Positions 3,558 to 64,000 of a stretch of 64,000 nt of DNA are shown here, piece after piece. The stretch spans positions 83,195-147,194 of the forward strand of contig JBBTTA010000002.1 in NCBI GenBank assembly GCA_038064475.1, in the 5' to 3' direction. The DNA is from Patescibacteria group bacterium (GTDB lineage Bacteria > Patescibacteriota > Minisyncoccia > Phycocordibacterales > EsbW-18). Positions within the stretch are counted from its first letter, which is position 1, and the number at the start of each line of letters is the position of its first letter. The notes beneath the pieces were generated by a model. The model saw only the letters and a program-made list of their open reading frames with translations. It was not told where the DNA came from and did no database searches. A program made the position numbers and the translations under genes.

Positions 3558-5315
3558 ATGAAAAAGCACGACATGGCCTCGGATCTTGCGCCTATGCGCC
3601 ACACCCTCGCCCACCTTTTGGCTGCTGTTGTTTTGGATATCTATCCAGACGCCAAACCTACCCTTGGTCCTGCAATTGATACAGGTTTTTACTACGACTT
3701 TGAGTTTTCAAAACCGCTTCAGGAAGATGACCTCAAAAATCTTGAAGAGAAAATGCGTGACCTCCTTCCTTCATGGAAAGAATTTACACATGAAGAAGTT
3801 TCAAAAGAAGACGCACTTAAAAAGTTTGCTGGGAATATTTACAAAGAAGAACTTATCAATGAAATTGTTGAACGAGAAGAAACAATAACACTCTACACAT
3901 GCGGAGGTTTTACTGACCTTTGTCGCGGTGGACACGTTGATCATCCCGCAAAAGATATCGATGTCAACTCTTTCTCTCTTTCACATCTTGCCGGTGCGTA
4001 CTGGCGCGGTGATGAAAAAAACAAAATGCTTACTCGTGTATATGGTTTGGCGTTCACATCAAAAAAAGAACTTGATGCGTACAAAACACAGCAAGAGGAA
4101 GCAAAGAAACGCGACCACCGAAAAATTGGAAAAGAACTTGATTTGTTTACCTTCTCTGACTATGTCGGTAGCGGCCTTCCTCTTTACACACCCCGCGGTG
4201 CCCTCATCAGACGTCTTCTTAACGAATATATTGAATCTCTCCAGTCAAAAGAGGGTTATGAGCAAGTGTGGACGCCTCAGATGGCAAAAGCTTCACTTTT
4301 CAAACAATCAGGACATTACGATAAGTATAAAGACAGCATGTTCCGTGTTGTCTCAAACTACTCTGAGGAAGAGTTTTTCCTCAAGCCAATGAACTGCCCG
4401 CAGCACACTCAGATTTATGCAAGTTCGCCAAAGAGTTATCGAGATTTGCCTGTACGCTACACCGACTTTGCAATGCTCTACCGCGATGAGCAGCCTGGCC
4501 AGTTGAATGGTCTTGCACGTGTTCGTGCTTTCTCTCAAGACGATTGTCATATTTTCTGTCGCGAAGATCAGGTGGATGAGGAAATTGACACTGCACTTTC
4601 AATGACGAAAAAAGTTATGGCGACATTCGGTTTTAAGTATAAATATCGCCTCTCAACAAGAGATCCTAACGATCAGAGCAAATACCTTGGTGACCCTGAC
4701 ACATGGGACAAAGTAGAAGCATGGGCAGAAAAGATAATGAAGCGAAATGATATCGAATATTTCCCTGGCCCAGGCGAAGCATCATTCTATGCACCAAAAA
4801 TGGATCTCTTGGCAACAGATGCGCTTGGGCGAGAATGGCAACTTTCTACAGTACAGATCGACTTTGTGATGCCAGAGCGTTTTGATCTTACCTACACCGA
4901 TAAGGATGGGAAAGAAAAACACCCCGTCATGATTCACCGCGCTATTATCGGTTCTCCCGAGCGATTTATAATGATGCTTTTGGAACACTTTTCCGGCGCT
5001 CTCCCAACATGGCTCTCGCCTGTTCAGGTAAACGTTGTTCCTGTGAGCGAAGAACAATTTGAGTACGCACAGAAAGTAAACGATGTACTCAAGGACAAAG
5101 GCATTCGTGTTGAGTTTGATAATTCAAATGAAGGATTGGGGAAAAAAATCCGCTCATGGAAAGTATCGAAATCTCCATATGCGATTGTTGTTGGCAATAA
5201 AGAGGTTGAAAGCAACACTATTACTGTCGAACATCGCAACGGAACAAAAGAAGTACTTACCGTTGAAGCCTTTACAGAGAAACTCGAAGAAGAAATCAAA
5301 ACTCGCGCCCTCTAG
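3558..5315 (+). CDS. thrS: Threonyl-tRNA synthetase
   Basis: Class II aaRS motifs and a ThrRS-like catalytic core (HRKIGKELDLF, FRDEQPGQLNGLARVR). 585 aa. Confidence 0.9.
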   Translation: MKKHDMASDLAPMRHTLAHLLAAVVLDIYPDAKPTLGPAIDTGFYYDFEFSKPLQEDDLKNLEEKMRDLLPSWKEFTHEEVSKEDALKKFAGNIYKEELINEIVEREETITLYTCGGFTDLCRGGHVDHPAKDIDVNSFSLSHLAGAYWRGDEKNKMLTRVYGLAFTSKKELDAYKTQQEEAKKRDHRKIGKELDLFTFSDYVGSGLPLYTPRGALIRRLLNEYIESLQSKEGYEQVWTPQMAKASLFKQSGHYDKYKDSMFRVVSNYSEEEFFLKPMNCPQHTQIYASSPKSYRDLPVRYTDFAMLYRDEQPGQLNGLARVRAFSQDDCHIFCREDQVDEEIDTALSMTKKVMATFGFKYKYRLSTRDPNDQSKYLGDPDTWDKVEAWAEKIMKRNDIEYFPGPGEASFYAPKMDLLATDALGREWQLSTVQIDFVMPERFDLTYTDKDGKEKHPVMIHRAIIGSPERFIMMLLEHFSGALPTWLSPVQVNVVPVSEEQFEYAQKVNDVLKDKGIRVEFDNSNEGLGKKIRSWKVSKSPYAIVVGNKEVESNTITVEHRNGTKEVLTVEAFTEKLEEEIKTRAL

Positions 5316-5321
5316 CCCTTA

Positions 5322-5361
5322 AAAACCATTCTCTAATTCGCTCGAATTAGAGAATGGTTTT
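5322..5361. repeat. Long palindrome aaaaccattctctaattcgctcgaattagagaatggtttt (copy 1)
   Basis: 19-bp stem hairpin. Its core tctctaattcgctcgaattagaga repeats at 5643-5674. Confidence 0.6.
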
Positions 5362-5640: not shown

Positions 5641-5642
5641 GG

Positions 5643-5674
5643 TTATTCTCTAATTCGCTCGAATTAGAGAATAA
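5643..5674. repeat. Palindrome ttattctctaattcgctcgaattagagaataa (copy 2)
   Basis: Same core as 5322-5361. Lies immediately upstream of the ArsR-like gene start. Confidence 0.6.
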
Positions 5675-5717
5675 CAGAGATAGATAAAATTGATTTAAAG
5701 AATTTAAAACTTTGATT

Positions 5718-7193: not shown

Positions 7194-7225
7194 AAAAAAC
7201 ACCTCCCGTCAGGAGGTGTTTTTTT
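7194..7225. terminator. Bidirectional rho-independent terminator aaaaaacacctcccgtcaggaggtgttttttt
   Basis: Perfect hairpin flanked by A and T runs. Confidence 0.7.
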
Positions 7226-9345: not shown

Positions 9346-9565
9346 CAAAATTTTTAGGCTGGAATCGAACCCGAGGGAATAAGACATGGGCTGGCGTAAT
9401 GACGCAAGACCGGCGTGCGACAACGTGAAGTTGGATCGCGAAGCTTTCAGTAAGAAAGTACTCGTGACCGAGGAAACCGTAGTTTTCCCTTGCCGACAGG
9501 CAGGGCGCACTCGCAAGTCTATATAAAAACAAATATCTCACTTACCCGTTAAATAAAAAAGAGGC

Positions 9566-9949
9566 CTAACGGCCTCTTTTTTGTAACTCAGGAAGACGCT
9601 CCAGAAGCACCTTAAGAGGAACCGAACTACCAACACCCTTTACGATGTCGACCATACGGAGCAAATCATTCTCACTCAAGTTAATATCAGGGAGCATCAA
9701 CTTTCGCATACGAAGTTGTCGCATACCGAGAAGCAGTTCTGCGTCTTCTTGAGAGAGTTCACATATCGCCATCAGATTCGGCAACTTCTTCTTGGGAAAG
9801 TTCCGATGCGCACAGAGGATTGCGTTGTAGAACGCACCAATCTTCTTACCGTTTCCAAGTTCAAGAAAACGCGCAAACGCATCCCGTGTCATGCCAAGCT
9901 TTTCTCGAGCCCGCTCGAGAATGCGTCCCAATGTGTCGTATTTGGGCAT
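9566..9949 (-). CDS. Small HTH (XRE-like) DNA-binding protein
   Basis: Start taken at MPKYDTLGRILERAREKLGMTRDAFA (HTH), because the ORF-track N-terminal extension overlaps a tRNA. Stop lies inside terminator hairpin 9558-9585. Confidence 0.45.
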   Translation of the reverse strand: MPKYDTLGRILERAREKLGMTRDAFARFLELGNGKKIGAFYNAILCAHRNFPKKKLPNLMAICELSQEDAELLLGMRQLRMRKLMLPDINLSENDLLRMVDIVKGVGSSVPLKVLLERLPELQKRGR

Positions 9950-10277: not shown

Positions 10278-10312
10278 AGATACAAAAAAAACGCCCCCAA
10301 GGGCGTTTTTTG

Positions 10313-11901: not shown

Positions 11902-12358
11902 ACAGGAGAAATAAAAAACCCCCCGCCGTACACACGGCGGGGTGTTTTTGTTAGCAAGGACTGCCTTCGCTCGTAATACAACCTGAGTACGATTCAATCA
12001 GCGTAGCCTCTTGTGACATTTGCTGTGTGCGAACATATTCCCCCACAACAAGCACAAGAAAGCTTGCAAGAAGTACAACAAGAAAAGAAACTGTGTTCCG
12101 GAAGAACGTCCGGTTAAAGAGCTCGCGCGCAGGCATATATGAACATGATACACGCAGCACTACATGCGTAGCAAGAAGCTCTAGTACAAGGTTTAACCTT
12201 GTACTTTTGAAGCAACACCTCTATAAACAGAGGCGTCGCTTCGCTCAGACAAATCCTGCTTCGCACAAGGCTACGCAGGACAAACAAAAACCGCCCCCAA
12301 GGGGGCGGTTTTTGCGAATTGACTCTATACGAGTAGTCGTATCCGAAACTAACTAATG

Positions 12359-27526: not shown

Positions 27527-27559
27527 GGGGTCTGACCCCACTAGGTGGGGTCAGACCCC
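27527..27559. repeat. Palindromic element ggggtctgaccccactaggtggggtcagacccc (copy 1; copy 2 at 56198-56230)
   Basis: Two inverted copies of ggggtcWgacccc. Same element recurs upstream of ileS. A second hairpin, acactgagtgttaaacactcagt, follows. Confidence 0.5.
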
Positions 27560-37342: not shown

Positions 37343-37385
37343 ATACGCGCCTTTTGTACGATATATCGTACAAAAGGCGCTCTTG
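37343..37385. terminator. Perfect palindrome gcgccttttgtacgatatatcgtacaaaaggcgc downstream of pilC
   Basis: 17-bp arms. Separates pilC from the pilin promoter region. Confidence 0.5.
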
Positions 37386-46459: not shown

Positions 46460-46483
46460 AATATAGCAAAAGAGAACACCGGC

Positions 46484-46517
46484 ATTCGATATATCGAATG
46501 CCGGTGTTCTTGCTTCT
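46484..46517. terminator. Terminator hairpin aacaccggcattcgatatatcgaatgccggtgtt; a second palindrome follows at 46548-46590
   Basis: Perfect inverted repeats after tyrS. Followed by ttgattcgtgacc (46586-46598) and cagaaaa-type heptamer repeats. Confidence 0.6.
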
Positions 46518-46668
46518 TGAGGTGTGTATAAAAAAATCCCCTCCCGACACATTCTATCGTTCTATAGAACGATAGAATGTGTCGGTATTCTTGATTCGTG
46601 ACCTGCCTGACGAACAGGTGGGTCCTTACTTCTGTTTTCTATTTTCTGTTTTCTGTTCTCTCAATTTC

Positions 46669-51800: not shown

Positions 51801-51960
51801 CTTGAAAAGAAAAAAGTGTCATATATATCTTGGTCCCCCAATACAGATTGATGCAAAAACAGAAGGAGGAGTTCAAGTGAACTAAATATACAAACCCCCC
51901 GCTCCGGCGAGCATACAAAAACCCACCGTATGGTGGGTTTTTGTATTAATCGATGGTTGT

Positions 51961-52608: not shown

Positions 52609-55600
52609 CTAAAGAAGTTTGAAAGTGAGTGGCTCACTTCCTGCATCGCCAACAGCGATGGTCATATCAGAAAGGTTTGTTGCTGCACAAATCTGATCTT
52701 TGTATTCTTCTGCAAGTGCAGTTGTTTCTTGTATTGCTGTCATGACTACATGCACCTTGTCTGATGGTGTGAGATTTGTTGTCTTTCGAAAGTCTTGAAG
52801 TGCTCGGATAAGGTCACGGAGGTCTCCCTCTTTCTTAAGCCCAGGTGTTATGTGTGTATCAAGTTCAACTTCCCAACCTGTACCGTCAGTAAATGCAATT
52901 TCTTTTACGTTTACTTCGTCTTTAATGATATTGAGGATGTCATCTATCTTTCTGATTTCTGATTTTGGATTGCGAATAGTGAGTCTCTGTAATGGCTGAC
53001 GAATCTTTACGCCTGCATTCATACGCGCTTCAAGTGCAAGAGAGACCGTACGGCGTGCTTCTGCCATGTGTTCAAGAAGATCCGCATCAACCTTCTTTGC
53101 TTCCGGCCACGCTTCAAGATGCACACTTTCAAGCGGTCCGTGCATATTTTCGTACAGTTCTTCAGCAAAGAATGGCGTCATTGGTGCCATGAGTTTTGAA
53201 AGCTCGAGAACTACGTATCGTGTTGTCGAGAGCGCAAAGAGTTTGTCTTCACCCTCATCTTTGAAGCGATCCCGGGATCGTCGGACGTACCATGTTGAAA
53301 GATCATTAATGAAGTCGCGGATATCGCGAGCAGGCTCATATGTTCGATAGTTTTCGAAATGCTCCGTCGTTGATGTTATAAGTTCGTTTAAACGCGCGAG
53401 AATCCACTTGTCCAATACATTTTTGCTTTTCTCATGACTTATGACTTGTGACTCATGACTTGCATCATGTGCATACAACTGATAAAACTTCACGACGTTG
53501 CGAAGAACGGTAAATACTTTCTTCACACCTTCATCAACAGTACGCTCATCGAAATTCTTTGAGTCCCCTGGCTGGTTCACCGCAAACATCCAAAAACGCA
53601 ACGCATCGACACCATATTTTGAAATCATCTCCCATGGATTCACCACATTACCTAGTGATTTCGACATTTTTTTACCTTCTGCATCGAGGATGTGCGTCAA
53701 ACAAATGACGTTCTCAAATGCCCGACCACGGCCCATCAACACACCAACGGCGTGCAAGGTGTAGAACCAGCCGCGTGTTTGATCGATTCCTTCGCAAATA
53801 TAGTCTGCGGGATAGCCTTCTTTCTCAACCCATTTTTTGTTTTCAAATGGATAGTGATCTTGTGCGAACGGCATCGAACCAGAGTCGAGCCATGCGTCCA
53901 ATACTTCAGGTGTACGCTTCATATACATAGAACATTTTGGACAGCCGACAACATACTCGTCGATGTATGGCTTGTGGAGGTCGAGTTCAAATTTCTCATT
54001 GTGCGGCAGAGGAATAAATGGAAGTTCGTGCACCTCGGCTGTTTCTTTAAACATTTTTATGTCTTTCACAATCGTCGTTGCTGTCGCCTGTTCTGATGCA
54101 GCAAAAAGCATTTGTGCGGGTGCGCCGTGCGTCACGATGAGAATATTCTTACCATCGTACATATCTTCAGTTTCGTAGAGAAATTCCGTCACACGACGTT
54201 TAATGTCTTCGTGACTCTCCCCTCCTTCTGGACGCTTGGTGAACCAGTCACCGTCAGTGAAAAACATCGCGAGTTCGTGGAATGTCCTGCCATCAAGTTT
54301 TCCGAGTTTTAATTCACCTAAACGATCATCAAAAATAATCTGGTCTTCTTTGAGTCCATGTTCTTGTGCAATGATTTCCGCAGTTTCTGTCGTGCGTCCG
54401 TATGGTGATGCAAGGATAAGATCAATTTTTTCAATTTTTTTCGCAGCATGTACGACTTGCCTCTTCCCTTCCTCAGTCAACACATCAAATTTACTTCCTT
54501 TTTTTGATGAAGCGATGTTCTCGGCATTTGAAAGTGCTTCGCCATGACGCATGACGGTGTACGCATTTGTTGTGCCTTGTGCGAGTGCTGTCAAATCTGC
54601 AATAGAACCAACAACTTCACGATGCTTGCAGTGCTCACACGTCCAGACCGGCAAGGGTGTTCCCCAATAGCGATCACGTGACACCGCCCAATCTTTTACT
54701 TCACGAAGCCATTCTCCAAAACGTCCACCACGAATGTGTTCGGGTACCCAATTGATTTTCTCGTTTTCTTTGACGAGTGTGTCACGCAACTGTGACATAC
54801 CGATGTACCACGACGTACGTGCATAATAAATAAGTGGTGTTTTACAGCGCCAACAGAATGGATATGTGTGTGCGTGGCTCTCTTTTTTGAAGAAAAAGCC
54901 TTTATCCTGAAGGTATTTAAGGACAACAATAGCTGTTGCCAAACCATTATCTTCTTTATCTTTAACGGGCAGACCTTCAAGCTCTCCCGTGCCCTTGATA
55001 AAATGTCCTGTCTCGTCGACAAGATGCACTTTTGGCAAACCAATCTCCGTTCCCAGCACAAAGTCGTCCTGACCGTACATAACTGCAGTGTGTACGATTC
55101 CTGTTCCATCTGTCGTTGTGACAAAATCTGCTGCATATACTTTGTATGCTTTTTCGAGTTTTGGTTTTTCAGAGTCAGGGGCAATGTTATTTAAATATGG
55201 GAACAGTGGCTCATACGAAAGTCCGACGAGCTCTTTTCCTTTAATCGTGCGTCGTGTAGTCTGACCCTCGACCACACTCTTAGACACGTTATCTGCATAC
55301 TGTGACAAAATCTTGTCTCGAAGATCTCTTGCGAAAATAATAGTTTCTTTCAAATGTCGCTCTGTTTCAGGTGCGGAATCTACTTTTTGAGAAAGTTCCT
55401 CGATGTCATATTCGATATCTTCCCCAACAGCGAGCGCAACATTACCAGGAAGTGTCCATGGAGTAGTAGTCCAAGCTAAAAAATACACATTTTCTGCGTC
55501 CTGTCCGCATAGTTTCCGCGTTGATTCCGCATCTAATTTAAACTTCACATAGACCGAAAGATCTTTGATGTCTTGATATCCTTGCGCAATCTCATGACTC

Positions 55601-56190
55601 GAAAGCGCTGTCCCACAACGAGGACACCACGGCAATACTTTGTAGTCTTGGTACAAAAGTTTTTGCCTATCGACTTCTTTGATGACGTTCCAAACTGATT
55701 CAATATATGACGGATAGTATGTCACGTATGCGTCATCGAGATTAACCCAATACCCCATACGTTCCGTAAACGCACGCCACTCATTCATGTACTTCCACAC
55801 ACTCTCTTTACACTTCTCATTGAACGCAGCAATACCGTACTCTTCAATTTCTTTTTTCGATTTCAAACCAAGTATCTTTTCAGTTTCAATTTCTACGGGT
55901 AATCCGTGTGTGTCCCAACCCCCTTTGCGACGCACGTGAAAACCGCGCATTGTTTTATATCGCGGAATAACGTCTTTGAATGCACGAGAAATGAGGTGGT
56001 GAATCCCCGGACGACCGTTTGCTGTAGGTGGCCCTTCGTAAAAAATGAATTCTCCTTCTGGTGACTTCTTCGCGAGCGTTTTCGCGAAGATGTTGCGCTC
56101 ACGCCACTTTTGAAGCTGCGCATCTTCTTTTTGAGCATTTTCACCCGGATTGTACTCGCTCTCAAATGCCATAATACGCCAGTATAGCAC
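52609..56190 (-). CDS. ileS: Isoleucyl-tRNA synthetase (type 2) with an inserted PGAM-like histidine-phosphatase domain
   Basis: HIGH-like GIHHL and KMSKS. Editing domain. Insertion at about aa 541-715 (nt ~54046-54570) with RHGE...LIVTHG motifs. 1193 aa. Confidence 0.85.
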   Translation of the reverse strand: MLYWRIMAFESEYNPGENAQKEDAQLQKWRERNIFAKTLAKKSPEGEFIFYEGPPTANGRPGIHHLISRAFKDVIPRYKTMRGFHVRRKGGWDTHGLPVEIETEKILGLKSKKEIEEYGIAAFNEKCKESVWKYMNEWRAFTERMGYWVNLDDAYVTYYPSYIESVWNVIKEVDRQKLLYQDYKVLPWCPRCGTALSSHEIAQGYQDIKDLSVYVKFKLDAESTRKLCGQDAENVYFLAWTTTPWTLPGNVALAVGEDIEYDIEELSQKVDSAPETERHLKETIIFARDLRDKILSQYADNVSKSVVEGQTTRRTIKGKELVGLSYEPLFPYLNNIAPDSEKPKLEKAYKVYAADFVTTTDGTGIVHTAVMYGQDDFVLGTEIGLPKVHLVDETGHFIKGTGELEGLPVKDKEDNGLATAIVVLKYLQDKGFFFKKESHAHTYPFCWRCKTPLIYYARTSWYIGMSQLRDTLVKENEKINWVPEHIRGGRFGEWLREVKDWAVSRDRYWGTPLPVWTCEHCKHREVVGSIADLTALAQGTTNAYTVMRHGEALSNAENIASSKKGSKFDVLTEEGKRQVVHAAKKIEKIDLILASPYGRTTETAEIIAQEHGLKEDQIIFDDRLGELKLGKLDGRTFHELAMFFTDGDWFTKRPEGGESHEDIKRRVTEFLYETEDMYDGKNILIVTHGAPAQMLFAASEQATATTIVKDIKMFKETAEVHELPFIPLPHNEKFELDLHKPYIDEYVVGCPKCSMYMKRTPEVLDAWLDSGSMPFAQDHYPFENKKWVEKEGYPADYICEGIDQTRGWFYTLHAVGVLMGRGRAFENVICLTHILDAEGKKMSKSLGNVVNPWEMISKYGVDALRFWMFAVNQPGDSKNFDERTVDEGVKKVFTVLRNVVKFYQLYAHDASHESQVISHEKSKNVLDKWILARLNELITSTTEHFENYRTYEPARDIRDFINDLSTWYVRRSRDRFKDEGEDKLFALSTTRYVVLELSKLMAPMTPFFAEELYENMHGPLESVHLEAWPEAKKVDADLLEHMAEARRTVSLALEARMNAGVKIRQPLQRLTIRNPKSEIRKIDDILNIIKDEVNVKEIAFTDGTGWEVELDTHITPGLKKEGDLRDLIRALQDFRKTTNLTPSDKVHVVMTAIQETTALAEEYKDQICAATNLSDMTIAVGDAGSEPLTFKLL

Positions 56191-56235
56191 TTAAAATGGG
56201 GTCAGACCCCACCCTTGGGGGTCTGACCCCCGTTT

Positions 56236-59215: not shown

Positions 59216-60499
59216 TTATCCAGTCCAGTGATAGGTCAAAATACTAAAGTCAGCAAGGTTTATCACACCGTCGCTATTTAGGTCATATGCTGCCGGAACA
59301 CCTTCTCTCCCTTGCCAATATGCAAGGATTGAAAAGTCGACAAGATTCACACGACCGTCCTTATTGAAGTCTCCCTTAAGCGCCCGTGTGGGACTCGCAA
59401 GATGAATAGCAAGACCAAATGGGCTTCGTGCATCCCCCACAGAGGCAAGTGAGCGAATCGCAAACCCTTCACCAAATAATTCTGGTGTTGGGAATGAGAC
59501 GCTGTAGCGTCCGTCATTATCAGACACATCTGTTTGTATCGCAAGTGTTGCTGGACCATCAGTTACAACAACAGCGACGGTTGCGTTGGGCACTGTCTCA
59601 CCAAAAACTCTAAATGTGTCGTCTGTGTTTGTCGCAAAGGAGAGTGTTGGCGGAATAAAGATACGCAACGATGACGTCAACGCTCCTTGCAGAAGCGTTA
59701 CCGGAAACGATAACAAACCGGAACGCACACCACTCGTATCGATACCATACACCGTAAAAATGTATGAGCCCGAGGATACATCACTCAACGGCACAGTAAA
59801 TGTGCCGTTTCTATCAACACTGATTTCTTTCGCAAAGATTCCGTCCTTCAGGATACGCACAATACCGTTTGGATGTGCATATCCGAAAAAAACAACGGTG
59901 GAGGTGCGTCCTCGAGAACTACTCGTGCCATCACCTTGGTCATCATCTTCGTCTTCTTCGTCCTCATCATCTGGAGTTGTGAGCGACACTGGTGTTGATG
60001 TACCGATTTGATTGCCGAACGCGTCGGCAACGACAACAACAAAGTAGTAGGTCGTGTCGGGTGTTAGATCGGTTGTTGTTGCGGCAAGATCAAGGTTTAC
60101 GTTCGTGTATGTGTATGGGCCATCTTCATCGTTTGCTGATACACCGTAGCGATAACTCGTCACACTCCATCCGAGGTAGGCTTGTGCTGCCGTCCACGAA
60201 ACGCTCGCCGTGCTTGTACCGATAAGTGTTGCGGTGAGTTGTGGTGTCACAACAACAGGGAATGGGAGAAATCCGTACTTTTGTGATGATGACGCAGTTG
60301 ATGATGTGCCGGTAAACACAAGATCGGTTGAAGTAAAGAGTCCAAAGTTGTCACTTTCAGACCATGTACCGCCTCCGCTCATAACGGGATCTTTGACAAT
60401 AAAGTTGTCGCTACGAAGCTCGGTTGCTTCTGAAACACGAATTCCCCACACCAAAAAGAGTGTGAGGAAAACGAGTGCGAAGTTGAAATATCGCAGCAT
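59216..60499 (-). CDS. Secreted FN3-domain protein with a C-terminal type I dockerin
   Basis: Two Ca-binding repeats (DFNKDGRVNLVDFSILAYW and DLNSDGVINLADFSILTYHW). Start chosen at MLRYFNF to avoid overlap with 60525..60959. Confidence 0.6.
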   Translation of the reverse strand: MLRYFNFALVFLTLFLVWGIRVSEATELRSDNFIVKDPVMSGGGTWSESDNFGLFTSTDLVFTGTSSTASSSQKYGFLPFPVVVTPQLTATLIGTSTASVSWTAAQAYLGWSVTSYRYGVSANDEDGPYTYTNVNLDLAATTTDLTPDTTYYFVVVVADAFGNQIGTSTPVSLTTPDDEDEEDEDDDQGDGTSSSRGRTSTVVFFGYAHPNGIVRILKDGIFAKEISVDRNGTFTVPLSDVSSGSYIFTVYGIDTSGVRSGLLSFPVTLLQGALTSSLRIFIPPTLSFATNTDDTFRVFGETVPNATVAVVVTDGPATLAIQTDVSDNDGRYSVSFPTPELFGEGFAIRSLASVGDARSPFGLAIHLASPTRALKGDFNKDGRVNLVDFSILAYWQGREGVPAAYDLNSDGVINLADFSILTYHWTG

Positions 60500-60524
60500 C
60501 ACAGGAGTGTTACGGAAAACCCGT

Positions 60525-60959
60525 TTAGAGCTCTTCTTCTGTTGAAGTCTCTTCAGAAGTCTCGGCCGGTGCTTCTTCAGTTGTAGCTCCTTGTACCTCT
60601 CCTTCACCGATGTTCACCGGAGCAACCTCAACGACTTGATTGCGTGATGGCGAGTAGAGAATTGCTTTCTGTGCCTGTGCGTAGATCAAGACACGGTCTC
60701 CTTCCTCTGCATTTGCAAAGAATGGTTGATCTGCGAGAAGGGAAGGATCAGCAACAGTTGCAACTGTTGGAACTTCGTCTGCTGGCAAAAGAATGAGCTT
60801 CCCTACTTCTTCAACAAGTGCCGCTACTTCTTCTTCAGTAGCTGCGTTTGGATTATTCTTGAGCTCGTTGTACTTCGTAAAGAAGTAGTATGACGATGCT
60901 CCTAAGATAATCACGAGAATAACCAATATGGTAAGTGTATTTCGCTGTGATGAATTCAT
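60525..60959 (-). CDS. Hypothetical N-terminally anchored protein (paralog of 61198..61647)
   Basis: Shared core PTVATVADPSLLADQPFFANAEEGD. Confidence 0.5.
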   Translation of the reverse strand: MNSSQRNTLTILVILVIILGASSYYFFTKYNELKNNPNAATEEEVAALVEEVGKLILLPADEVPTVATVADPSLLADQPFFANAEEGDRVLIYAQAQKAILYSPSRNQVVEVAPVNIGEGEVQGATTEEAPAETSEETSTEEEL

Positions 60960-61197
60960 ATCAAATTAAAACTTACAACAATAAAAAGGTGCGTTACCCC
61001 ACTACGTACCGTGCCTAAAAGTATAGCACAAAAGAATCAACGCAATATCCCCAGCACCCTTGAGTGCCGAAAGCACTCAAGGGTGCTTTTTCCCCAAAGT
61101 ATCAAACGCTGAGCGTTTGATACTTTTTCCACCGGTAAGGCAACGCCTTACCGGTGGACGGGTCTGTTTTTTGTTCTTTGCTACGCTGGCGAAAAAT

Positions 61198-61647
61198 CTA
61201 CTCTGTTCCGTCAAGGTTTACTTCTCCTTCTGTTTCGATTGATGTTTCTTCTTCTATCACAGGCCCTGGTGGTAGGGGTGTCTGGTCTGTTTCAGTCAAG
61301 GTAATGGTTGCGATGTTCACAACCTTATCGAGTGTTGGATTATAGAGCACAGCTTTCTGTGCGATTTGATACACAAGCACCTTATCTCCTTCTTGAGCAT
61401 CGGCAAAGAATGGCTGATCTGCTAGTGTCGAGGGGTCTGCAACCGTTGCAACCGTTGGTATTTCCCCCTCCGGAAGAACAACAAGACGCCCTATTTTCTC
61501 CACAAGCGCCTGTACCTCTTCTTCGCTTGTGCCTTGATTTCCTGTGATCTGTGCTTCCGTATACTTCTTATAGAAATAGTATGTGCTTCCGACTGCTCCA
61601 ATAAGAAGGATAAAAAGAATGACAATGATTTTTGCTGCTCGGTTCAT
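61198..61647 (-). CDS. Hypothetical N-terminally anchored protein (paralog of 60525..60959)
   Basis: PTVATVADPSTLADQPFFADAQEGD. Three tandem terminator hairpins downstream at 61049-61160. Confidence 0.5.
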   Translation of the reverse strand: MNRAAKIIVILFILLIGAVGSTYYFYKKYTEAQITGNQGTSEEEVQALVEKIGRLVVLPEGEIPTVATVADPSTLADQPFFADAQEGDKVLVYQIAQKAVLYNPTLDKVVNIATITLTETDQTPLPPGPVIEEETSIETEGEVNLDGTE

Positions 61648-61798
61648 ATATATAATGAATGGTTATGAATTGCTCGTATGGTTTAAACCCCCGTATGCCC
61701 CTTTTACTCACATGCTCCCTTACTTACATACTCCCTTATTTATGCTTAGTGCCATTAGAATACCAGATTTTCGTAAGGCAACAACAGGTACTTGGAGG

Positions 61799-62473
61799 CT
61801 AAGCCTCCAAGAGAACCTCTCTTAGGTCTTTTTCGTCCTCCTTCCTTTTTATTATGTCCTTTAGGGTATTTCTACTAAAAACCATATAGTCTGTGTTTGA
61901 TGAAAAGCGCTTAAGGACAATGTCCTTTTTACAAAAATTGGTCGTCTCAATACCAAAATACTCTTCCTTACTCGACATTGATAACTTGGAGGCTAAGCCT
62001 CCAAGTTGATGTGCTTCATGGTTAAGGTTAATGTATACGCTTAAGTGAAGGAGGTATTCATCTGTTGATACGTGTTTTGCTTTATACGGACCTTGAAAGA
62101 GCCCCCCATTTCTTTCATATTTTTCATTGAAATACATTGTGTATCCCGTCCCTAAACGTTGCATAAACTTTTCAATCCCTTTCTCCTCAATTTGCTTCAA
62201 AATAAAGTGGTAATGATTTTGATTTAAACAATAGGCAACAAATTCAACAAGCTGCCCCTTGGAGGCTAAGCCTCCAAGGGGCTTTCGGTACTGCAATTCA
62301 AAAAGACTTCCGATTGGCTCAAGGACATTGAACTCGTTCATGCATAGAAAAAATCTTTCCATATCTTCCTTGCAAAGAAAAACATCACGCTTATCCGTAC
62401 CGCGATTATAGATGTGATAGTATTCACCAGCAGCAAAAAGTGTCTTTCTCATCCTTGGAGGCTTAGCCTCCAA
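61799..62473 (-). CDS. IS200/IS605-family HuH (Y1) transposase / REP-associated tyrosine transposase-like, carrying in-frame palindrome insertions
   Basis: YHIYNRG...HYHFIL (HuH) motifs. The 21-nt palindrome is translated as LGGLASK twice internally and also covers the start (MEAKPPR). Confidence 0.6.
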   Translation of the reverse strand: MEAKPPRMRKTLFAAGEYYHIYNRGTDKRDVFLCKEDMERFFLCMNEFNVLEPIGSLFELQYRKPLGGLASKGQLVEFVAYCLNQNHYHFILKQIEEKGIEKFMQRLGTGYTMYFNEKYERNGGLFQGPYKAKHVSTDEYLLHLSVYINLNHEAHQLGGLASKLSMSSKEEYFGIETTNFCKKDIVLKRFSSNTDYMVFSRNTLKDIIKRKEDEKDLREVLLEA

Positions 62474-62532
62474 GGAGTATACGGATTCCAGATAAAATAT
62501 ATTTAAACTTGGAGGCTAAGCCTCCAAGTCGA

Positions 62533-63120
62533 TTAGAAACGCCAGGAGGTCATGAGGTGTGCAAGCCATGTGTCGAGGTGTGCATAGGTGGTTATTTCAT
62601 AGAGATACCCGTCGTGGATAATCCACACCTCTCGTGTTTTTCCAATACCATCGGCATTACCCCAAAACAGCAACGCTTCGGTGCCATCTCCTAATACAGC
62701 AACTTGTGGATCTTCGACAACTGTACCCGGTACATCACGGTTGATGATCTGTGGGGTGATAACTGAGACCGGTTCTTCTGGCTCATACGGTGTTATGTAG
62801 ACTTGGAATCCTTGTTTTTGCTCAACTGAAACACCGGCATCGCTTTCTCGCTGTAAAATAATTGTTTCAGCTCCTTCGCCTTCTGTGTACGCATGCACCT
62901 CAAGATCTTTAGGGAGTTCTATCGAGAAACCTCGCTCCGGGTGTGTAAATGTGGAATACCCCTCACCTAGAATAGTCCCTGTTGTCAGTGCACTCTCCCC
63001 AAACTCAAACGGACCGACCCTATCCTTGGAGGCTAAGCCTCCAAGGATAAGGAAAAGCGCACCCGCACCTAAAATAGCGAGTAGAATAAGGACTAAAAGT
63101 ATTTTGAATCTTGTTTTCAT
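62533..63120 (-). CDS. Hypothetical secreted protein with an in-frame palindrome-encoded LGGLASK after the signal helix
   Basis: 195 aa, N-terminal TM/signal. Palindrome copy at 63024-63044 falls within the coding frame. Confidence 0.45.
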   Translation of the reverse strand: MKTRFKILLVLILLAILGAGALFLILGGLASKDRVGPFEFGESALTTGTILGEGYSTFTHPERGFSIELPKDLEVHAYTEGEGAETIILQRESDAGVSVEQKQGFQVYITPYEPEEPVSVITPQIINRDVPGTVVEDPQVAVLGDGTEALLFWGNADGIGKTREVWIIHDGYLYEITTYAHLDTWLAHLMTSWRF

Positions 63121-63230
63121 ATCTTCTGGGCGCCCTTGGAGGCTAAGCCTCCAAGTGGCTGGCCGACATCCGATGTCGGCCAGCGTATTAATCAGCTTGA
63201 TAATCAGCTTGATCTAATCAGCTCACTCAA

Positions 63231-64000
63231 TTAAAACATACGCACCGTGCGGAGGCGGACGTTTCCATACAAACGCACACGCAATAATCCTTGTGTGGTG
63301 ATTTCTGGAATGACGGTGTACCCACCGAGCACACCACCATCGCTTTGCACGGCACGGATGCAGTAGGTTGTATTGGGAGATGCTGTAAGATCTTTGAGAG
63401 CAAAATCCCACAAACCATCCTGACTAAAGGGAATTGTCGCAACAGAATTAGTAAAGTTGTTAAAGTTTTCAAAATCTTGTGCAACGACGGTGTGTGCTGA
63501 CCCTGTCGTTGTTGCATGTTGTGGATCTAAGTTATTTGCGGTCAAGTTGGTTCCATCTACAGGAATGGTGCTTGCTGTTGATACATTCCATGCTATAGAA
63601 AGGTCGTACTCGTCGATATCGCTGCTACCAAAATTTTGTGCCACATACATCTTCAATCCATCTGGTTTGAAAAAAAACCCAGTGGGGCCTGTGCTCTCTG
63701 AATTGATGTTTTTTGCTTGAAGAAATGATGCGGTCGAAACATCCCATGCAGTTCCGAGGTTATATTCATTAACCTCTTCTGGTACAGTTTTTTCTCCAAC
63801 ATACATTTTCAGTCCGTCGGGTTTGAAAAAAAGACCCCAGGAGTTTGTACCTTCTGCAGAAATACTCTTTGCCTGAAGAAATGAAGCAGTTGATACATTC
63901 CACGCTGTAGAAAGGTTGTACTCATTCACCTCATTGTCGCTGGCCCCAAGTATATACATTTTTAGTCCGTCGGGTTTGAAAGAGACTCCATCTGGGCCTG
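63231..64000 (-). CDS. Repeat protein (~45-aa tandem repeats, EYNL.TAW.VSTASF...FFKPDGLKMYV), N-terminus beyond the window
   Basis: Frame stays open to nt 64000 and continues the FKPDGLKMY repeat. At least three repeats lie inside the window. Confidence 0.5.
   Translation of the reverse strand, partial: GPDGVSFKPDGLKMYILGASDNEVNEYNLSTAWNVSTASFLQAKSISAEGTNSWGLFFKPDGLKMYVGEKTVPEEVNEYNLGTAWDVSTASFLQAKNINSESTGPTGFFFKPDGLKMYVAQNFGSSDIDEYDLSIAWNVSTASTIPVDGTNLTANNLDPQHATTTGSAHTVVAQDFENFNNFTNSVATIPFSQDGLWDFALKDLTASPNTTYCIRAVQSDGGVLGGYTVIPEITTQGLLRVRLYGNVRLRTVRMF

Follow-up and report, generated by a model that had tools for sequence, protein, structure and literature searches.

The Y1/HUH locus and its hairpin copies

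We analysed a 64,000-nucleotide (nt) stretch of a Patescibacteria contig (JBBTTA010000002.1 of assembly GCA_038064475.1, positions 83,195-147,194 of the forward strand), which is called the window below. Scanning of the whole window identified seven copies of a 21-nt hairpin, CTTGGAGGCTWAGCCTCCAAG, between positions 61791 and 63155, where they lie in and around two minus-strand genes: one for a 217-amino-acid (aa) protein of the Y1/HUH type, similar to the transposases associated with repetitive extragenic palindromes (REPs), and a neighbouring one for a 195-aa membrane protein (Table 1). Five of the seven copies belong to the Y1 gene: a pair upstream of it, a pair in frame within it and a single copy that provides its stop codon. 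The other two belong to the neighbouring gene. Other loci and contigs compared with the window are labelled by L-numbers.

Table 1. Genes and hairpin copies at the Y1/HUH locus, in window positions.
Feature	Position	Strand	Remarks
H1, 'end' slot	61791..61811	-	overlaps the last Y1 codons; ..C TTG GAG GCT TAG = L E A stop (LLEA-TAG)
Y1/HUH (RAYT-like, TnpA_Y1) gene, 217 aa, intact	61799..62452	-	ATG at 62452, stop at 61801-61799
H2, in-frame slot 2	61985..62005	-	LGGLASK, aa 150-156; just past the catalytic-Tyr helix, outside the Pfam core
H3, in-frame slot 1	62258..62278	-	LGGLASK, aa 59-65; loop preceding the strand toward the HuH motif
H4, upstream slot U1	62454..62474	-	1 nt before the ATG; sole inverted copy
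H5, distal upstream slot U2	62508..62528	-	-76 from the ATG; 4 nt past the neighbour's stop
Neighbour gene, 195 aa	62533..63120	-	N-terminal membrane or signal helix; no known family
H6, in frame in neighbour	63025..63045	-	LGGLASK, aa 26-32; right past the membrane helix
H7	63135..63155	-	14 nt upstream of the neighbour's ATG

Six of the copies read CTTGGAGGCTAAGCCTCCAAG on the plus strand, with A at the centre (starts at 61791, 61985, 62258, 62508, 63025 and 63135); the remaining copy, at 62454, is inverted and has T in the middle. The original prediction had described seven copies of a perfect palindrome; the number was right, but the symmetry breaks at the centre base and one copy is inverted. 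Its in-frame LGGLASK copies at 62258 and 61985 and in the neighbouring gene were also found, the last of them starting at 63025 and not at 63024. The unit forms a 3-nt loop on a 9-bp stem that is symmetric save for the centre base, and together with its usual A..T flanks it folds as single-stranded DNA (ssDNA) at -10.2 kcal/mol (z = -6.4). At three of the copies the flanks extend the pairing, by 2 bp at H2 and by 4 bp each at H3 (GCCC/GGGC) and H6 (TATC/GATA). H4 sits where a ribosome-binding site would be expected. H5 and H4 form an inverted doublet with a 33-nt AT-rich spacer, which can pair as a single long stem resembling a REPIN (a doublet of inverted REPs; -26.3 kcal/mol, z -8.1).

A scan of the 64-kb window that allowed up to three mismatches to CTTGGAGGCTWAGCCTCCAAG gave no other copies, and no genuine ones were added by a looser search for the foot, CTTGG-N11-CCAAG. 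The 21-mer was absent from 100 dinucleotide-preserving shuffles, so the chance expectation is nil. Three extra copies are located close by, beyond the window end (L001 2312, 2469 and 2492). About 10 copies are thus known from the host genome, all within 4 kb on the part of the contig examined, and the other 61.8 kb of the window has none. The first of the extra copies, in L001 2295-2332, is perfect, is preceded by a degenerate one and lies ~16 nt upstream of the ATG of the next gene. The other two, at L001 2469-2512, are a divergent in-frame doublet reading FGGSTSK-I-LEVKPPS directly after an N-terminal membrane helix, the same placement as that of H6 in the 195-aa neighbour. An unrelated perfect hairpin with a 13-bp stem (63158-63184, GCTGGCCGACATCCGATGTCGGCCAGC) abuts H7 in the intergenic stretch that separates the 195-aa gene from the repeat-protein gene upstream of it.

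The Y1 gene encodes an intact HUH enzyme of a large lineage

The 217-aa protein matched the Pfam model Y1_Tnp (PF01797) with 30.7 bits at a cut-off of 23. The HYHFIL stretch, from which an HuH-type transposase gene had been predicted, proved to be part of the NHYH HuH motif (H80, H82), and the catalytic tyrosine is Y140 in SVYINLN. These residues are invariant in an alignment of 120 homologues, and the protein aligned end to end with more than 100 homologues of similar length at 50-68% identity. Because of this full-length alignment and the invariant catalytic residues, the open reading frame (ORF), which is open throughout, is not a pseudogene. The prediction had named that as one way in which it could fail; the other, a local palindrome beside an ORF devoid of HuH catalytic residues, is answered by the presence of H80, H82 and Y140. 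The lineage is widespread in Patescibacteria, and a profile search identified 1,118 clusters (50% identity) of it at E <= 1e-30. The source names of the homologues, and of the genomes with the identical 21-mer, also assign the organism to the Patescibacteria.

In a fold search with the AlphaFold (AF2) model of the protein (mean predicted local distance difference test score, pLDDT, of 83), the best PDB match was 4ER8, the E. coli REP-associated transposase with a REP hairpin (E 1e-4, probability 1.0), followed by the IS608 and ISDra2 TnpA structures. A sequence profile gave no meaningful match among PDB chains, and the Y1 transposases were found by the fold search only. The NCBIfam model for REP-associated tyrosine transposases (RAYTs), REP_Tyr_transpos (NF047646), scored 17.2 bits at a cut-off of 80. 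The Y motif of the protein is YINLNH and the family consensus is YVNLN, lacking the P of the class-2 motif Y---NP.

The hairpin-encoded regions had low confidence in the model, with pLDDT below 50 for residues 57-64 and an average of ~68 for the block 151-160. The prediction had asked whether the inserts fall in surface loops. In the model both are placed in loops of low confidence that are not part of the Pfam core, which fits with toleration of the two in-frame slots. The suggested comparison with and without the inserts, made on the Pfam score, was uninformative: the core that Pfam matches includes neither heptapeptide, and deletion of both left the score practically unchanged at 30.2 bits.

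This is the only Y1 gene in the 64-kb window, and no tnpB was found among its called neighbours. The PADLOC and PHROGs scans gave no matches for the Y1 protein or the 195-aa protein, and no helix-turn-helix (HTH) domain (Bac_DnaA_C, HTH_23, HTH_28) was detected in the 217-aa protein by Pfam at E <= 0.1.

Hairpin slots are conserved across the gene family

We surveyed the hairpin slots at the DNA level in 91 homologous genes from 88 loci, counting a slot as occupied when at least 8 of the 9 stem positions of its 21-mer could pair. The slot just upstream of the ATG (U1) was occupied at 70 of 88 loci and the slot at the stop codon in 67 of 86 genes; the two internal sites, S1 and S2, were occupied in 51 and 57 of the 91 genes, respectively. 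The distal upstream slot U2 was rarer (13/85 loci); the closest homologues have it between -98 and -108. Four close homologues carry hairpins of their own at ~-100, -20 to -45, +174 to +177, +450 to +456 and ~+647 from the ATG, and the hairpins of the window are at -76, -22, +174, +447 and +641. One relative, for example, carries CTTGGAAGC...

At the protein level both internal sites have the form L/F-G/R-G/S-x-A/T-S/P-K/Q, in which codons 1/7, 2/6 and 3/5 are reverse complements. The heptapeptide varies between proteins and matches within a protein, as in three homologues with FGGPTSK, LGSLAPK and LRGLTSQ, each present twice. Judged from these alignments, neither of the copies inside the Y1 gene is a recent, random insertion, as the slots are common to the gene family.

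We also considered whether the C-terminal 'LLE' is always encoded by the hairpin. This was rejected: in most homologues the hairpin begins a few nt past the stop, and the overlap of hairpin and stop is found only in the subclade of the window.

At three of five well-covered loci (L034, L035 and L038), the Y1 unit is located directly downstream of a gene for a surface-type protein of 1190-2070 aa, and these large upstream genes carry Peptidase_S74, beta-helix or Laminin_G_3 domains. The Y1 unit of the window is surrounded by secreted and repeat proteins.

Slot contents are uniform within a genome and differ between genomes

The foot ACTTGG/CCAAGT is nearly invariant throughout the family, and each genome has its own apical 4 bp and 3-nt loop. 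Hairpin pairs were identical, in either orientation, in 65% of comparisons within a locus versus 0.7% between loci. The loops, which are free of any pairing constraint, were identical in 83% versus 10%, again in either orientation. Relative orientation was random (132 same, 126 inverted). The stem-coded residues were equal at both internal sites in 53 of 87 proteins among the 120 aligned homologues, compared with a mean of 9.2 and a maximum of 19 when partners were shuffled. At slot 2, an analysis of 46 distinct hairpins/loci identified changes on both sides at 12 of 15 pairs, with 105 two-sided-change cells observed versus 35 +/- 5 after shuffling; none of 500 shuffles reached 105.

The locus L119 carries the same imperfect version of the hairpin in all four slots. 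Compared with the perfect hairpin of a relative, this version has only coding-synonymous differences, and these are present in the non-coding slots as well. The shared imperfect version points to copying between slots and not only to selection for pairing.

Two loci, L095 and L103, contain a second, distant Y1 gene with a different hairpin of its own. The second gene of L095 (11788-12463) has TAAGGACTT-NNN-AAGTCATTA upstream, inside at +152 and at its end, and the second gene of L103, on the minus strand, has TGTCAAAGAGACACTTTGACA on both sides. A putative cognate link between enzyme and hairpin is therefore supported by two kinds of sequence comparison, the covariation and the paralogous Y1 genes that each carry their own hairpin.

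Outside the core, A..T flanks were present in 203 of 252 copies; the flanks are otherwise variable, and GTAG was not found. At least four extra pairs beyond the core occurred in 28% of the 252 copies versus an expected 0.4%. Covariation was also seen at site 2, between the flanking codons for His-Gln/Arg and those for Leu/Ser-Val. The flanks are not copied along with the core, because they differ between slots. Their complementarity possibly arose by insertion at the tip of existing palindromes, by fold-back synthesis after nicking or by selection for longer stems.

Copies outside the Y1 gene

The exact 21-mer of the window was found in 27 stretches of GTDB genomes, all of them Patescibacteria, and one metagenome-assembled genome (MAG) contains at least 12 copies on seven contigs. 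The unit is exactly seven codons long, and four of its six reading frames are stop-free. The intragenic copies of related genomes are often in frame, read LGGLASK or LEAKPPS and are frequently doublets. According to NCBIfam, the carrier ORFs encode DNA polymerase III alpha (DnaE), TypA, IF-2, RNase R, RecJ, TsaD, DusB, PrmC and phosphoglucose isomerase, and the copies in these housekeeping genes use different reading frames. Doublets of the form LEAKPP(x)-LGGLASK were seen at L010 (~800-860 and 2015-2075), L031 (~2830-2893), L018 (~4025-4085) and L012 (4210-4267); their first copy is short of the last 2 nt, and the copies use two open frames.

About 10 of 120 TsaD orthologues have a heptapeptide of the hairpin type, located in one and the same variable loop and in each case in a version of its own. 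The carriers are in part clustered in groups of close relatives, and some of their neighbours seem decayed. The hairpins of TsaD and Y1 genes from the same genome could be compared in two genomes. The TsaD loop of L029, from a MAG, contains CTTGGAGGCTTAGCCTCCAAG (CTTGGAGGC-TTA), and the same hairpin is present at the Y1 gene on L033. The TsaD loop of L120 contains CTTGGAGGTCGAACCTCCAAG (CTTGGAGGT-CGA), identical with the Y1 hairpins of L059, which lie ~20 kb away on one contig. The slots shared among relatives, in the Y1 gene and in TsaD, were either inherited and refreshed or hit repeatedly.

Over 75 loci, 23 copies were counted outside the Y1 unit in 650 kb. Up to 1 kb from the Y1 unit their density was ~1.1 per 10 kb, versus ~0.2 farther off, from which some 10-20 copies might be expected in a genome of 1 Mb.

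The homologues of the 195-aa neighbour are without the heptapeptide and the closest one is gapped there, so H6 looks like a true insertion, located in a juxtamembrane linker that is variable. L039, a low-coverage Hainich contig, was considered as an empty site for H6 and rejected, as the difference is a point mutation: at 3915, CTTTGAGG replaces CTTGGAGG in H6 (G->T). The change gives a TGA stop in the 195-aa gene, for which the gene caller reports only a 121-aa product, and it represents either a strain polymorphism or a sequencing error.

The prediction had likened the locus to the Rickettsia palindromic elements (RPEs) that colonise coding sequences. This held for the neighbour's copy, which the homologues lack, and for the same 21-mer in frame in housekeeping genes of relatives. 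It did not hold for the copies inside the Y1 gene, which occupy family-wide slots with genome-specific hairpins and are not opportunistic insertions.

Comparison with known systems

REPtrons, which were reportedly described by Nunvar in 2010, by Bertels and Rainey in 2011 and by Ton-Hoang in 2012 (structure 4ER8), are said to consist of a TnpAREP/RAYT gene flanked by its cognate REP or REPIN, as in E. coli yafM and in Pseudomonas. The locus resembles them in its Y1/HUH enzyme of apparently low copy number, in the same hairpin on both sides of the gene (H5 and H4 upstream, H1 at the stop) with an inverted upstream doublet, in its enzyme-specific hairpin families and enzyme-hairpin covariation, and in 4ER8 as the best fold match. 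It differs in the foot, which is ACTTGG/CCAAGT instead of the 5' GT[AG]G of REPs, in the Y motif, which is YINLNH instead of Y---NP, and in a score far below the cut-off of the RAYT model. Copies are apparently fewer, perhaps ~10-20 per genome instead of dozens to hundreds of dispersed extragenic REPs, and centred on the gene; many are intragenic, and the short stem is perfect, without a bulge. The predicted REP/RAYT-like character was thus borne out for architecture, fold and cognate hairpins but not for the canonical signatures. Because several defining tests of canonical RAYTs and REPs failed, we did not place the locus in a described subclass.

The RPE-1 elements of Rickettsia, reportedly described by Ogata in 2000, are said to be ~100-150 bp long and to have no associated transposase. 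The unit here is 21-23 nt long, adds 7 aa, is tied to a Y1 gene and occurs in Patescibacteria. In-frame palindromic repeats in functional genes, often genes of replication and repair, are known from the RPEs and from intragenic GTAG/CGTC REPs (Di Nocera 2013, PMC3733652). The copies described here are similar in being inserted in frame in functional genes, sometimes at the same site in orthologues (PMC3733652). The intragenic GTAG/CGTC REPs carry tetranucleotide tags, a difference from the 21-nt unit tied to the Y1 gene.

Among the TnpA_Y1 subclasses defined by Quentin, Siguier, Chandler and Fichant (2018, PMC6006769), subclass 2.4 is reported to have REPs in frame inside the tnpAREP gene. As here, the enzyme's own REP is found in frame where the gene encodes peripheral regions of the protein, and further REPs flank the gene. 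Subclass 2.4 belongs to Cyanobacteria/Bacteroidetes and has long GT[AG]G or 'double-foot' REPs and the motifs NH[IFV]H / WQ / YIxNNP. In the window, one slot precedes the HuH motif (aa 59-65, with H80) and the other follows the Y motif (aa 150-156, with Y140), the motifs are NHYH / LFQG (FQ) / YINLNH, and the 21-nt hairpin has no GTAG foot. In the parts of PMC6006769 that were read, we found no description of slot conservation with genome-specific content or of homogenisation that includes the loop. The closest motif set in its Table 1 is that of subclass 2.1/TIRYT (Bertels group 1; transposases with terminal inverted repeats, TIRs), with NH[YF]H, FQ, a Y[IV]HLNP-like motif, an SS tail and ~220-240 aa. 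NHYH, LFQG and MSS (family consensus SSW) are present here, and the Y motif is without P. Subclass 2.1 has, according to the same source, a C-terminal HTH and TIRs instead of REPs, whereas the protein here has no Pfam HTH and is accompanied by REP-like hairpins.

Insertion sequences of the IS200 type (IS200/IS605) are comparable in that a Y1 gene is combined with an upstream hairpin and a hairpin over the ribosome-binding region, and the enzyme acts on ssDNA hairpins. IS200 TnpA is ~150 aa long with Y---Q, in contrast to 217 aa with YINLNH here. IS200 is multi-copy as an entire element, with subterminal end hairpins that are repeated neither by themselves nor within the gene. With one Y1 gene in 64 kb and identical hairpins inside that gene, the unit of the window falls outside IS200/IS605.

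To our knowledge, studies of REPs and RAYTs have been almost confined to Proteobacteria, and how REPs get copied is still unknown. We found nothing on such a system in the literature on Patescibacteria and the candidate phyla radiation. In-frame REPs in genes, also inside tnpAREP genes, are already published, and the most striking features of the locus have precedents. It differs from the known cases in its Patescibacteria lineage, its motifs, hairpin type and slot positions, its low, gene-centred copy number and its homogenised, genome-specific slots. The system is small and clean, with a 21-nt hairpin that has a conserved foot and a variable tip, few slots and a record of loop and orientation, and what a RAYT-type enzyme does to hairpins can be tested on it with short oligonucleotides and strain-resolved metagenomes. 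For annotation, the 7-aa LGGxxSK and LEAKPPS inserts in conserved proteins encoded by these reduced genomes are to be read as DNA-level features and not as protein motifs.

A probable REPtron-like unit and its alternatives

We consider it fairly probable that the locus is a REPtron-like unit, in which a Y1/HUH ssDNA endonuclease/transposase of a Patescibacteria-specific lineage acts together with a cognate 21-23-nt hairpin and the contents of the slots are homogenised by copying or replacement. Observed are the architecture, the covariation, slots that are conserved throughout the family and homogeneity within genomes, including loop and orientation. In such a unit, the hairpin would be composed of a conserved foot, (A)CTTGG...CCAAG(T), a genome-specific apical 4 bp and a 3-nt loop. 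It would occupy fixed slots, one or two before the gene, two in in-frame loops flanking the catalytic core and one at the stop codon, and a few extra slots at other places in the genome, which would be most dense close to the gene and frequently in frame within protein loops that tolerate them. The Y1 enzyme would recognise the conserved foot on ssDNA and catalyse a cut-and-rejoin reaction by which the hairpin is replaced or spread, and repeated copying or replacement in either orientation would keep the slot content uniform within a genome. The hairpin slots are probably overwritten by the Y1 enzyme, and the upstream and stop-codon hairpins may also damp expression, similar to those of IS200. 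For E. coli TnpAREP, cutting and rejoining of ssDNA beside REPs is documented (PMC3479197).

Several points weigh against this explanation. Among close Y1 homologues, no pairs of empty and filled sites were found, only decayed or divergent slots (L071 vs L086, L119 vs L072), and mobility through the Y1 enzyme is inferred only, from indirect evidence. The copy number is low, with the ~10 known copies of the host contig confined to 4 kb, and the GT[AG]G guide of RAYTs is absent, so that the mode of recognition would have to differ. The excess complementarity of the flanks is not explained by simple cut-and-paste. Finally, the deep conservation of the slots could instead mean a host or regulatory function of the hairpins.

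In a regulatory explanation, which we regard as unlikely, the copies would be selected hairpins without any transposition, such as terminators or insulators, elements occluding the ribosome-binding site, 3' stems stabilising the mRNA or pause sites, served by one trans-acting factor, possibly the Y1 protein as an autoregulator. The low copy number and the fixed, functionally suggestive positions directly before the ATG and at the stop would agree with it, as would the -108 copy of L037, with its lengthened stem and the T-rich tail after it, and the hairpins by which IS200 limits its own expression (PMC3733652). However, the same sequence is found in frame in unrelated housekeeping genes and in different reading frames, its orientation is random, and the poorly pairing version shared by the four slots of L119 indicates copying rather than selection of structure. 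Moreover, Rfam at permissive thresholds gave only chance-level matches in 60000-64000, and a promoter/terminator scan made no call on these hairpins. Homogenisation without an enzyme, by template switching and short-patch gene conversion at palindromes, with a merely historical link to the Y1 gene, appears about equally improbable. Palindromes are hot spots of template-switch 'correction', a character that favours it. The complementarity extending into non-repeated flanks is what fold-back or template-switch synthesis would produce, and loop inversions are as frequent as non-inversions. On the other hand, 21 bp of identity without flanking homology is a poor recombination substrate across hundreds of bp to tens of kb (L059, L120), each Y1 paralogue is adjoined by its own hairpin family, and the conservation of the foot family-wide while the rest varies suggests recognition by a conserved protein.

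The strict form of the original prediction, that is, a selfish, RPE-like palindrome that recently and randomly colonised the transposase gene and its neighbour with only in-frame survivors, seems very improbable to us. The unit of seven codons, the neighbour's copy absent from homologues and the identical 21-mer inside DnaE, IF-2, TypA, RecJ, RNase R, TsaD, DusB and PrmC of other genomes speak for it. For the Y1 gene it is refuted, since both sites are the same in the more than 100 homologues, each with a different hairpin; the TsaD site, too, is common to several genomes, and the copies cluster at the gene and show no random spread. An assembly or sequencing artefact, for example an adapter or a chimeric hairpin, has nothing in its favour except that an exact repeat within coding sequence is odd, and it is practically out of the question: a locus with identical proteins and open ORFs was recovered in several independent ENA and Logan assemblies of different samples from Hainich groundwater metagenomes (longest contig 158 kb), and the same architecture with other sequences is present in homologues from many studies, which already refutes this explanation.

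A further extension of the REPtron-like explanation is that the hairpins are not parasites of the gene but belong to the machinery of a natural slot-rewriting system, in which the enzyme overwrites fixed genome addresses, some of them in loops of essential proteins, using a master copy in its own gene. We regard this as a distinctly speculative idea, with little chance of being correct. L119 fits with it, as the synonymous changes of the coding slots have spread to the non-coding slots. If it were true, the enzyme specificity, the hairpin and the two enzyme loops would evolve as one unit. One third of the hairpins, those of the window included, have T-N-A loops, in which a flip turns TTA/TCA into the stop codons TAA/TGA. 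A flipped loop could then switch host genes off or truncate the enzyme past its catalytic helix; among 269 homologous proteins, no such 'switched-off' alleles ending at a flipped hairpin were found.

Other features of the window

The window contains 33 perfect hairpins with stems of at least 10 bp (e.g. 7194-7224, 9555-9582, 10286-10311, 12285-12314 and 51913-51946). When only loops of 3-5 nt were counted, there were 38 hits versus 0 in a shuffle. Many of these hairpins lie between an A-run and a T-run, resembling bidirectional terminators. Three different perfect hairpins with 14-15-bp stems are arranged back to back at 61053-61087, 61096-61126 and 61128-61158, in the spacer that separates the paralogous membrane-protein genes at 60525-60959 and 61198-61647 (140 nt at 72% identity). 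Two small hairpin families unrelated to the 21-mer have two copies each, 5322-5361 / 5642-5675 and 27527-27559 / 56198-56230 (core TTCTCTAATTCGCTCGAATTAGAGAA; arms GGGGTCTGACCCC), and long loop-less palindromes centred on CGATATATCG, likewise unrelated to it, are present at 37347-37380, 46473-46510 and 46544-46585.

At 63231-64000 and continuing past the window end, the minus strand carries a gene with 156-nt (52-aa) tandem repeats (NEYNLxTAWxVSTASFLQAK...), the full-length product of which, on L039, has 724 aa and a faint Pfam match to Lactonase. The minus-strand gene at ~52609-56172 (L001 11682-15245) encodes an isoleucyl-tRNA synthetase of 1187 aa, in which the precomputed Pfam annotation places a His_Phos_1 domain between tRNA-synt_1 segments.

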